A stretch of 64,000 nucleotides of DNA from assembly GCA_035221665.1 (NCBI GenBank), contig CM069163.1:22506001-22570000 (forward strand), written 5' to 3'. The DNA is from Okamejei kenojei. Its lineage: Eukaryota. Shown here piece by piece: positions 29,010 to 43,726 of this stretch (position 1 is the stretch's first letter; each line of letters begins with the position of its first letter). Under the pieces are notes generated by a model. That model was not told the DNA's origin, did no database searches, and was given only the letters and a program-made list of their open reading frames with translations. A program made the position numbers and the translations under genes.

Positions 29010-29125
29010 CTCATAAAACCCGTATCGGTCGTGATCGTATCTCCCGGTGATACCAGATGTTTGTTGACCTCGGCCGGTAAAGTGGCGCGCTTTCGGGCCG
29101 TCGCTAACCGAATGTCCACCGCCAT
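29010..29125 (-). CDS. EXOSC2: EXOSC2 exon 1: [39 protein letters not shown]
   Basis: AAGATGGCG start context, AG|gtaaaa donor; CpG-rich. Confidence 0.95.
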
Positions 29126-29650
29126 CTTTGTCACTGGCAGTTTGCGGGCGGCCAGTATAAATTGCGGTTCGCCATTTTTGATGTGGGCCAATCACACGCC
29201 TTCCAAATACGTTAACATTTATTCCCGAGTTTACAGATCTGAAATAAACAACGACAAAAAAAAACGAATAGGCTGAGAATAGAAATCTGACGTAAAAATA
29301 TTTTTTTGGAAAAATTCAGAATGAGTAGCATCGGTGGAAAAAGAAACAAAGTTAACGTTTAAAATCAAAATAACAAAGTCTCGGAGTAAATAAACAGATC
29401 AGGCTGCAACTGTGGTGAACATAGATATAAGAAGTTTCAGGTCGAGATCTTAAATCGTCAGATTATGTAAACAAAGAAAACTTGAAATCAAGTTAGTTAC
29501 TAAGAAGGATTCCAACACGAAGCGTGTCATGATGTACATGTTTTCCAAGGATGTTGCCTGACCCGCTGAGTTACTCCAGCATTTTGTGTCTTTCTTTGAT
29601 ATAAATCGGTATCTGCATTTCCTTATTATTACTTATTGAACAGTCGGGAG

Positions 29651-29662
29651 CAAAGATCTTTG
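29651..29662. mobile_element. 12-bp palindromic micro-insertion CAAAGATCTTTG with 8-bp TSD GTCGGGAG
   Basis: Direct repeats at 29643-29650 and 29663-29670. Confidence 0.7.
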
Positions 29663-30134
29663 GTCGGGAGCATGTGGTTTGCCAGTATGCTCTGGAGCAG
29701 CGTGTGCCCGCCATCTTTAATGCGGGCAGAGCAGCCTCAATTACTGACTACTACTGCTCGGGACTACTTTCGCCATATCTTTTACTGGCAAACGCTGCGC
29801 TGCTCGTCTTTTGCTACTCGATATCTTTATGATGTCGAACAATCTCACCAGTCTTTACGTTTTCTTTACGCGATCCGGCTTCTTTGGCGTCAGCTGCCAT
29901 GTTTATGATTGTGAGAACAATTAGTTTTAATTTGGGCGACCGACTATCGGTTTTCATAACTAATCATTACTCACAGTCGTTTATAAATTACATCGGTTGG
30001 CACTTCCAGGTACCAGTTGAGATCGTTCACAGGAATATAGTTACAACCATGTTAGTTAAGGTTAAATCTCTAATAAAACCGGGGAATCGCTGTCAAATGT
30101 TGTGACTGAAAATGGTGCTCACCGCCATCTTAAG

Positions 30135-30159
30135 CAAAGATCCTAGAGGAGTATCTTTG
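30135..30159. mobile_element. 25-bp micro-MITE CAAAGAT-cctagaggagt-ATCTTTG with 8-bp TSD ATCTTAAG
   Basis: 7-bp TIRs identical to the 29651 element; direct repeats at 30127-30134 and 30160-30167. Confidence 0.75.
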
Positions 30160-30304
30160 ATCTTAAGTTGTGTTCATATGCAATATTTTAGAGATTCATC
30201 ATAGAAACAAACCTGAGGGATCCCAACCTGAAATGTCATCTGCACATTCCTCAACAGACGCTGACTGACCCGCTAAGCTCCTCCAGCACATTGTGTGTTT
30301 CTCA

Positions 30305-41231: not shown

Positions 41232-43204
41232 TAATATTTAAAATACAATTGGAAGGGTACATGGATAAGACAGGTTTAAAGGGATGTGGGCCAAAGACAA
41301 GCAAATGGGATTAGTTTATATGGGGCACCTTGGTTGGCATGGATGTGTAGCGATGAAGGGCCAGTTTCCGTACTGTATGACTTTACATCATGTGAGATTG
41401 TGGATCTGTGAACAGAAGCCTTTGTTGTCAATTTTTAAGCCTTAAATGATCTTGTTAACATTTTGCCGATTGGGAGTGGCAGCACTATTGGATCATAACG
41501 GCTGTGGTGGGGTGTATCATAGAAACTTGCTTTAAGAAAACGTGGCTGGGGAGGTTGAATTAGATTTGTGGCTGTAAAGCATCTTGAAAGCTTCTCAGGC
41601 ATGGTTGGTTTGCATTTCATTGACTCTCTAGTGTAAGTGAATGCACCAAAAATACAGGACTTTTTCTTGTACCACCAAGCGACGATTTTTTGTGATTACT
41701 ATTTAATTCCCTGTACATTTTAGATTTAGGACTGTCTTTTAACAGATTAAAGGATAGTTTTATGAATTGCTAGATGTTAAGGTTCCCCTATTGGATAAGC
41801 AATTGCTGTGGTCTTAAAATCTATAGCCTCCAAATGACATTCCCTTCAGTTTACATTCTTTTATTAAAGTGCCTGGTCTGTTTTCTTACTTTATGATTTG
41901 TGCAAAGGTTTTTAATGTTTTGTATGCATATATGATCTTTCCAAAGTACTCCTTGATAGGTTAAAGAAAAAATGAACATTGACCATTCACAACATTGACC
42001 ATTGACAATAGCTGGCCAATAGAGAATTGGAAATGCAAGAAAAGCGTGGGTTAGTTTATACACACCAAATTTACAGAAGCATCACTTTTACTGTTGACCT
42101 GATAATCTATTTCAGTGTTGATAGATTAAGGTTGACCAGAAGCTGTGGAGCACATTACTCTCTCTAAAAATAATAACACAGGGAATTTTGAATGTTAACG
42201 TCCCATCCAAAAGCTGACGTCTCGAACAGCAAAATTATTGGCCAGTGCCCATGTGGCATGATGTTTTTGTGACTGTGAGTGGGATTTCAAACTACTACAA
42301 ACTAAATTATACTTCAGAGTACTACCCATGAAGTTACAGTTCGTTTTTACAACAATTTTATAGCAAGTGATACAATAAGAATCACAAGGCACAGAAACGC
42401 AGCTTGCAAATTCAATTTGCAAGCAATTGCTCTGTGACGTTTAACAATGTTTAACAAGTGTAAAACAATTCTGATTATGGCCTCTGTTAGGGAATTAATT
42501 GCTATTCCTGTGTCCCATGTTGGGGGGTCAGGGATTTGACTAGTAATGGCACCAATAGTAAATTAAAAAATATTAATTCAAAGCTTACAATGATACGTTT
42601 CAAAAGTTTGATGCACTAGCTCTAAGAATCAGTACTTTAAGCCTTTGGATTGGAGGACTCTGATGATTTGTAAATCTGATAATAGGTAAATCTAAATAGG
42701 AAATCTGATGTTGAAGGGTGCATTTGTGAAGATATTTTTTGTCGCAGTGTTTTCAATAGTGGAATGATGTGGGAACATTTCCATTCTTAATTTCAGGAAA
42801 CACATTTGTTCCATAAAAATGTTGACTTTTGCACTCAATTAACCAAAAAAATGATTCTGACAACTTCACATGTGCACATGCCTGGCTTGATTTATACCAG
42901 TCGTGCTGTCAGGCTGTAATAGGAACTTACAGTGCAGTGATCATTTAAATGAATGTTTTAACAAGGGAAAAGTGTCCCAATAGAGAATTGGAATTACAGA
43001 TCGGGTATTAATTAGTATATCGACAGATGGTTGTGTAACACAATCCTTCAATGAATTGCCTCCACTCATTAAGAATTAAAATTGCTGGTGTCACTTATTG
43101 TGTATCAGAAAACTATGATCTATTACATTTTGACTTTAATCCTCAAATAATTGTGCCTGTTGGGAAAATATTTGTTTTTTATATGTTGATCATTTTCTTT
43201 GTAG

Positions 43205-43383
43205 GGCTATGCAGCAACAGGCACAAACGTTTCATCCACGCCATCCTCTCCAACAGCCGCGGCACCAACTTCAGCGGCAGCAGAAGCAAATGCCTCAGCT
43301 AAACTTGCATCCGTCCAGTCAAACTTCACTCATTAATTCTAATCCTATGCTACAGCGTACCCTGATAATGCAACAGATGTCAG
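43205..43383 (+). CDS. CIZ1: CIZ1 coding exon 2: AMQQQAQTFHPRHPLQQPRHQLQRQQKQMPQLNLHPSSQTSLINSNPMLQRTLIMQQMS
   Basis: ctttgtag acceptor, G|gtggga donor; resembles human LLNGSMLQRALLLQQLQ. Confidence 0.9.
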
Positions 43384-43726
43384 GTGGGATCACACTGTTG
43401 AAAGTTATTAGCAAGAATACAATGACTGAGACCATAGATTAAATTGCTATTTTAATATTGTTGTAACTTATGAAATGTTCACCTCTTGGTAAAATTTTGA
43501 ACTTTTTCTAAGGTTTACTGGTGATATTTTAATTGAAAAAATGAAATCATTTAAAATAGTTTGGATAATGAGTGCAGTCGTCCTTTAATAAGTTTGTTAG
43601 CATTTTATCAATATTGTGTGAGTGCGGTATAATTTTTCGTGGCTGAATTGAAAACATGAATTAAAAATACATTCTGTTCCAATAAAATACACACAGATGG
43701 AGTTCAGTAACTTTTCCGAAGCATTA

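Follow-up and report, generated by a model that had tools for sequence, protein, structure and literature searches.

Two Short Insertions Upstream of EXOSC2

The window, a 64,000-nucleotide stretch of the Okamejei kenojei genome, contains the first coding exon of EXOSC2 (RRP4) on the minus strand (29010..29125), which was identified by its match to human RRP4 (E 6e-7). Approximately 520 bp upstream of the EXOSC2 ATG lies site 1, where a 12-bp insert with no assigned strand (29651..29662) is flanked by two copies of an 8-bp target site duplication (TSD; 29643..29650 and 29663..29670, plus strand). At site 2, a 25-bp insert, also with no assigned strand (30135..30159), stands between its own 8-bp TSD copies (30127..30134 and 30160..30167, plus strand). 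An earlier note on this DNA had reported both micro-insertions at these positions, and re-reading the window reproduced them exactly. The same note had seen no further TSD-flanked copy in the 64 kb, and a blind scan for exact 8-bp direct repeats flanking 10–100 bp with inverted ends of at least 5 bp likewise gave two matches, which are site 1 and site 2. The location had been described as the interval between EXOSC2 and CIZ1; the first name stands on the match to human RRP4, and the second was not confirmed, an Atlas search with 43200-43385 from the Q-rich plus-strand frame giving no usable match. This frame (43140-43442, plus strand) looks like an early coding exon of a plus-strand gene.

Exact CCGCCATCTT motifs, which we take to be YY1-like, occur at 29119-29128, 29708-29717, and 30122-30131, that is, three times in 1 kb, and the first covers the EXOSC2 start codon. 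As had been pointed out, the second TSD overlaps the motif at 30122. A link between the insertions and YY1 sites is not supported: this motif is unbroken with or without the site 2 insert, and no comparable motif lies close to most of the sampled short copies. The inner end of the element itself can also read like CCGCCATCTT. A possible GT..AG intron of a plus-strand transcript (30010..30257), with GT and AG at its borders, would hold site 2. One contig of run X11, of uncertain kind, gives a weak hint of it by leaving the window at 30009 and continuing with letters like those from 30258 onward, joining a repeat-derived segment; the contig is labelled organism A, yet its alleles are like those of the related organisms. 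No function is indicated for either site.

Both structures are insertions relative to related species and differ in age. In organisms B, C, and D, which carry the site 1 TSD as a single copy, the 20 bp starting at 29643 do not occur (three of the four related runs, the run of E having no coverage there). The 33 bp at 30135-30167 are skipped in the contigs of C and D, and organism B carries the site 2 25-mer with one difference. A second study of organism A (run X2) has both insertions. From this pattern of presence and absence, site 2 is older than the split of A and B, and the 12-bp insert of site 1 is the younger of the two and confined to organism A among those compared. The empty orthologous sites with one TSD copy that the earlier note had proposed to look for thus exist for both insertions, and its reading of two independent events of one family with real TSDs is borne out. 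Relatives show only empty or short-insert alleles at both sites, and no allele with a long element was seen in the contigs of seven runs, although contigs drop rare variants.

Short Copies Across the Genome

The exact 12-mer of site 1 occurs 971 times genome-wide compared with 95 occurrences of the reversed control. Among 50 other copies sampled, 13 have a TSD (two mismatches or less), and most of the others lie inside an unrelated repeat. The pattern CAAAGATC-N1..30-GATCTTTG has 3,166 matches versus 16 for its control, with a TSD (again with up to two mismatches) in 32 of 35 sampled copies. The further TSD-flanked copies that the earlier note had proposed to look for thus exist in large numbers. 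Chance origin is ruled out by the reversed-pattern controls together with the empty orthologous sites. The exact 25-mer of site 2 occurs once in the 2.76-Gb genome.

Many copies have been multiplied passively: the 109 short TSD-flanked elements in the fetched DNA collapse to 63 independent sites, 46 of the elements repeating the site of another copy. The raw count therefore overstates the number of independent events, which can be estimated, roughly, at the order of a thousand. In 200 kb of randomly chosen DNA no short copy turned up, as expected at 1–2 per Mb. A tandem array (L227-L234, G000:C1:104.058-104.067 Mb) has a 24-bp unit made of 16–18 nt of one end type, the 18-nt type, plus eight more bases, and seems to be a satellite grown from a short copy plus its TSD. 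One-sided copies at L205, L094:2045, and L097:7588 retain one arm to about the same boundary as complete copies and have lost the other arm together with its TSD.

A P-Type Transposase Between the Same Ends

Exact 25-nt ends of the commonest type number 1,020 genome-wide, and exact ends of a second type, the 18-nt type to which the site 2 insert belongs, number 192. TSD-flanked copies of 370–1,456 bp with the commonest ends were found among 30 sampled, and paired ends of the 18-nt type enclosed TSD-flanked elements of 1.1–7.8 kb in 8 of 10 fetched stretches, with a THAP-coding piece in six of the eight. TSD-flanked elements with the ends of the short copies thus span 0.4–7.8 kb, in addition to two elements that code for transposase (10.2 and 6.45 kb). 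The copies of 370–460 bp and 0.9–1.5 kb do resemble MITEs. In one non-autonomous family of approximately 400 bp (L127-L130, L133, L135, L140, L154; L045), the repeats on either side of an end-like stretch about 280 bp in are inverted and not direct, which may reflect a template switch or a hybrid insertion.

The larger coding element, 10,235 bp long (G000:C28, L087:1883 into L184), has matching 23-nt ends and a perfect TSD and spans the transposase; the 6.45-kb element (L089) also spans it and has a perfect TSD with one worn end. The P-transposase GTP-binding domain has 20 matches in the genome, two of them within these complete elements, and for the other 18 no TSD-matched end pair was found within the 10–46 kb fetched. 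None of the 20 matches represents an intact transposase (open frames of 108–566 aa), all copies seen being broken. A separate stretch of 7,064 bp (L102:2640-9703) spans two P-transposase pieces and has an 8-bp direct repeat with 14-bp inverted ends of other sequence (CTCCGAAG...), representing either another end type or chance.

A 446-aa transposase frame matches the Pfam TNP-like domains RNaseH_N, GBD, and RNaseH_C (PF21787, PF21788, PF21789), all over the cut-off, and a weak THAP piece lies upstream in a broken frame (PF05485, E 4e-4, 21.5 bits, below the cut-off of 23.9). The sole PDB match of the transposase is the Drosophila P transposase 6P5A (E 3.5e-27). By hand count on this alignment, D230, D303, E531, and the eight GTP-site residues listed in PMC7776569 align with identical residues; in a second transposase copy, R stands in place of K400. 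The elements thus combine CA...TG ends and 8-bp TSDs with a split RNase H domain carrying a GTP-binding insertion, all of which are features of the P superfamily, whose TSDs measure 7–8 bp. Their ends are imperfect inverted repeats of approximately 25–35 bp with an inner copy of AAGAT. Judged by its domains and termini, the parent is best classified as a P-element-superfamily (THAP9-like) transposon and not as hAT.

The earlier note had anticipated a long transposase element with CAAAGAT ends, which was found, and had expected it to be of hAT type, which it is not: the same ends bound a P-type transposase whose PDB match is 6P5A, and none of the 71 frames of at least 75 aa in the two complete elements matched a hAT family. 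The reading of the short copies as minimal hAT MITEs or hAT footprints has in its favor the 8-bp TSDs, the ends starting with CA, and a TSD pattern (nTnnnnAn) like that of Hermes and hobo. Among the 63 independent sites, 40 have T at position 2 and A at position 7, with G or C at position 1. As tabulated in PMC2577343, this pattern fits Hermes/hobo targets and P alike and therefore does not discriminate between the two. No hAT transposase, as marked by a dimerization domain and a BED finger, was found between the ends of the two complete elements, and for the parents found here a hAT-type origin is refuted. During hAT excision, hairpins form on the flanking DNA, so that the bases left behind derive from the flanks; hAT excision is not known to leave end sequence at the donor. 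We regard the hAT reading as almost certainly wrong.

A Sharp Limit to the Arms of the Short Copies

In every short form, the outermost bases of the two parent ends are fused. The 12-mer of site 1 comprises 8 nt from each of the left and right ends, which overlap in the self-complementary GATC (a 4-nt microhomology), and the 25-mer of site 2 comprises 17 nt of one end and 10 nt of the other with AG in common (a 2-nt microhomology), a 17+10 join that recurs at unrelated sites (L206, L297). The arms do not extend into the parent ends indefinitely. They stop at the point GAGC|AAGAT, which lies 18, 19, or 20 nt in depending on the end type, and arms that continue into insertions or into the flank stop there too.

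At least 17 nt of an end of the 20-nt type are retained in 323 strand matches, and genome-wide a single arm reaches 22 nt, which reads equally well as 20 nt plus one base plus the other arm. Among the 100 matches listed, 53 by hand count reach base 20 (the C of GAGC) exactly or with one chance base more, and none continues with AA. The 18-nt type has 354 matches with a modal product of 34 bp (18+18-2), and one of the 100 matches listed passes GAGC|AAGAT; this product of 46 bp keeps 28 nt of one end (C2:3065781) and resembles aborted gap repair. In a sample of 88 TSD-flanked short elements, which the queries biased toward long arms and in which a spurious end variant made the arms of 12-mers too long, GAGC|AAGAT is the exact end of 36 of 176 arms; three stop at +1, one at +2, and none beyond. 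Because the boundary GC can serve as a microhomology, the number of joins there is inflated. Sizes are bimodal, with 81 elements of 40 bp or less, none of 41–202 bp, and 15 longer ones; all 109 sampled short TSD-flanked copies are 40 bp or less and none measures 41–200 bp, the 46-bp exception having come from a separate search.

This boundary bears on whether the short forms arose by internal deletion without a staggered cut, that is, by aborted sister-chromatid gap repair or by slippage between the inverted ends that collapsed a long copy. Such deletions are known for cut-and-paste elements and are frequent after P excision (PMC2895639), and besides the 46-bp product with its 28-nt arm there is secondary shortening inside single amplified sites (28 and 12 bp at one, 38 and 33 bp at another). 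This process, however, predicts a smooth spread of arm lengths, and a wall is observed instead at 20 nt (1 of 323 arms reaches 22) and at 18 nt (1 of the 100 listed passes); the sampled elements include no TSD-flanked form of 41–202 bp, and microhomologies further in, such as the AT in AAGAT, go unused. The cut-off thus largely refutes internal deletion as the main route, and we consider it very unlikely to explain the two inserts, although gap repair also yields some short forms, as the 46-bp product indicates. The sharp arm boundary likely records the transposase cut, which would lie 18–20 nt inside each end compared with 17 nt in the fly.

Excision Scars as the Probable Origin

Fly P transposase leaves 17-nt noncomplementary 3' tails of end sequence at the donor site (PMC2895639; PMC7776569). 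End joining of the donor then produces a TSD, part of each tail, and a TSD, with short microhomologies, blunt joins, and templated insertions at the junctions (PMC2895639, Tables 1 and 3). The skate sites have the same composition, keeping both TSD copies and end sequence on both sides up to a fixed limit, and their junctions show microhomology, blunt joins, and insertions repeating nearby sequence, classes that match Table 1 of PMC2895639. We conclude with considerable confidence that both window inserts are germline excision scars of a P-superfamily (THAP9-like) transposon with CAAAGAT ends.

By this account, a long copy would have inserted at each site and made the 8-bp TSD, as the long family elements do. 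The transposase would then have made a staggered, presumably GTP-dependent cut, severing one strand at the terminus and its partner 18–20 nt inside, just before the inner AAGAT. By analogy with the fly enzyme, which also suggests the 3' polarity, both sides of the gap in the chromosome would have carried single-stranded 3' tails made of end sequence. During end joining, these tails may have paired through a short word complementary to itself (GATC in the 12-mer and AG in the 25-mer), and trimming and fill-in would have yielded the arrangement TSD-scar-TSD. The resulting scars would be immobile, identical scars with the same flanks having been copied passively within other repeats. No site with a long element in one genome and a scar in another was seen, so that the step from long to short is inferred. 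The 12-mer may have formed directly at the first joining or when a longer scar collapsed later, as one amplified site holds both 28-bp and 12-bp forms. Scars of the family also lie in the 5' part of transposase-coding elements (L087:2558-2593, L094:2327-2360 and 2404-2438, L091, L092, L098), and we explain these by self-insertion and then excision, followed by spread with the host element.

The recurrence of identical 22-, 28-, 33-, and 34-bp forms at many unrelated sites with their own TSDs could instead suggest mobile micro-MITEs, that is, palindromes of 12–40 bp that a P-type transposase excises and inserts, each insertion making its own TSD. These forms, however, are the products to be expected each time tails join at palindromic words within them, the junctions differ between sites and include insertions, and 46 of the 109 sampled copies only repeat another copy's site. 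In the short forms, moreover, neither the inner half of the inverted repeat nor any of the subterminal sequence contacted by the fly transposase is present (PMC7776569), and a unit of 12–25 bp is too small for two staggers of 18–20 nt. Mobility of this kind is highly improbable. The forms of 12–40 bp were accordingly rejected as a MITE class, being heterogeneous and without the inner end, instead of uniform units with complete ends. The earlier description as a minimal MITE or internal-deletion footprint was right in direction as to a footprint and wrong as to a mobile MITE.

Compared with the junctions left by P{wa} in Drosophila melanogaster (PMC2895639), the scars are alike in that both TSDs are kept, each terminal repeat is kept up to a fixed limit, and joins use tail microhomologies of 1–4 nt, blunt ends, or nearby-templated insertions. 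They differ in the limit, which is 18, 19, or 20 nt by end type here and 17 nt in the fly, and in that thousands of natural, fixed scars in a vertebrate germ line are compared with laboratory isolates. Unlike the P{wa} products, the scars are near-perfect hairpins, because the tails hold several palindromic words.

The inner AAGAT just past the arm limit repeats bases 3–7 of the end. In the fly complex, the transferred strand doubles back and pairs with the 5' part of the other strand (PMC7776569). A similar fold-back, with the ATCTT beside the transferred 3' end as the possible pairing partner of the freed 5' AAGAT, would explain a cut placed by sequence. We lean, by a modest degree, toward a fossil-map reading, by which the scars preserve where a vertebrate P transposase cut, in which the inner nick is set by sequence (before the inner AAGAT, at 18, 19, or 20 nt) and not by a fixed count, and in which long copies were cleared from CpG-island DNA and the scars stayed.

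CpG Content Around Scars and Long Copies

Scars are enriched in CpG-rich DNA, and long copies are not. The median CpG observed/expected ratio is 0.54 for the flanks of independent scars, 0.39 for random windows (n = 240), and 0.37 for the outer flanks of long copies (n = 30), and the difference between scar flanks and random windows is significant (rank test, p 5e-9), the random windows coming from 20 blocks and the scars largely from the start of C1. Of the 63 independent scar sites, 17 are CpG-island-like compared with 9 of 240 random windows and 2 of 30 long-copy flanks, and among flanks without a repeat match in the 1.17 Mb fetched the proportions are 6 of 20 and 3 of 91. The two window sites have ratios of 1.11 and 0.78. 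The earlier suggestion that insertion favors open promoter chromatin is upheld as a lean toward CpG-rich DNA, CpG content being the only measure of promoters used. As such a proxy, it fits the promoter preference of P-type elements together with loss of long copies from such DNA; by the fossil-map reading, scars would mark past insertions in regulatory regions from which long copies were cleared.

Comparison with Known Systems and Significance

The skate transposase shares with the Drosophila enzyme (6P5A; PMC7776569) an RNase H domain split by a GTP-binding insertion and probably the order THAP, HTH, and RNase H, with the three catalytic acidic residues and the GTP-site residues aligned. The elements likewise share CA...TG ends, an 8-bp TSD, and, judged by CpG content, a preference for promoter-like DNA (PMC7776569), and differ in having unrelated end sequences, imperfect inverted repeats of approximately 25–35 bp with an inner AAGAT, and only broken copies among those seen. 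The likeness to hAT MITEs (Hermes/hobo targets, PMC2577343) is confined to ends starting with CA and to an 8-bp TSD whose positions 2 and 7 are T and A, and no hAT transposase was found within the scar-type ends of the two complete elements.

Among the accounts consulted, the nearest vertebrate case is zebrafish Pdre/zfTHAP9 (bioRxiv 10.1101/2024.03.22.586318), which is also a P-like family with 8-bp TSDs, one long copy, and many internally deleted copies, and for which excision was shown in cells. Pdre differs in its 13-bp terminal inverted repeat of other sequence and its approximately 50 copies, and the text covered describes flanking deletions after excision and gives neither a cut position nor genomic scars. 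The literature covered, including the Galileo/P papers PMC4168063 and PMC3698922 and leaving most subscription journals and Repbase outside its scope, contained no natural genome-wide P-type scars. The analysis adds the parent, the arm cut-off, and the empty sites; the mechanism itself is known, and the probable cut geometry and the scale are new.

Within one vertebrate family, the natural scars, which number in the thousands, would reveal how deep the cut lies in several end types and yield a rule for cut placement that is testable with swapped substrates. The scars also document on a large scale how the germ line joins ends that carry long, defined 3' tails, and they offer a means to count past jumps of vanished elements. 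Finally, scars are clean presence/absence markers, and the pair in the window already separates A, A+B, and C/D.
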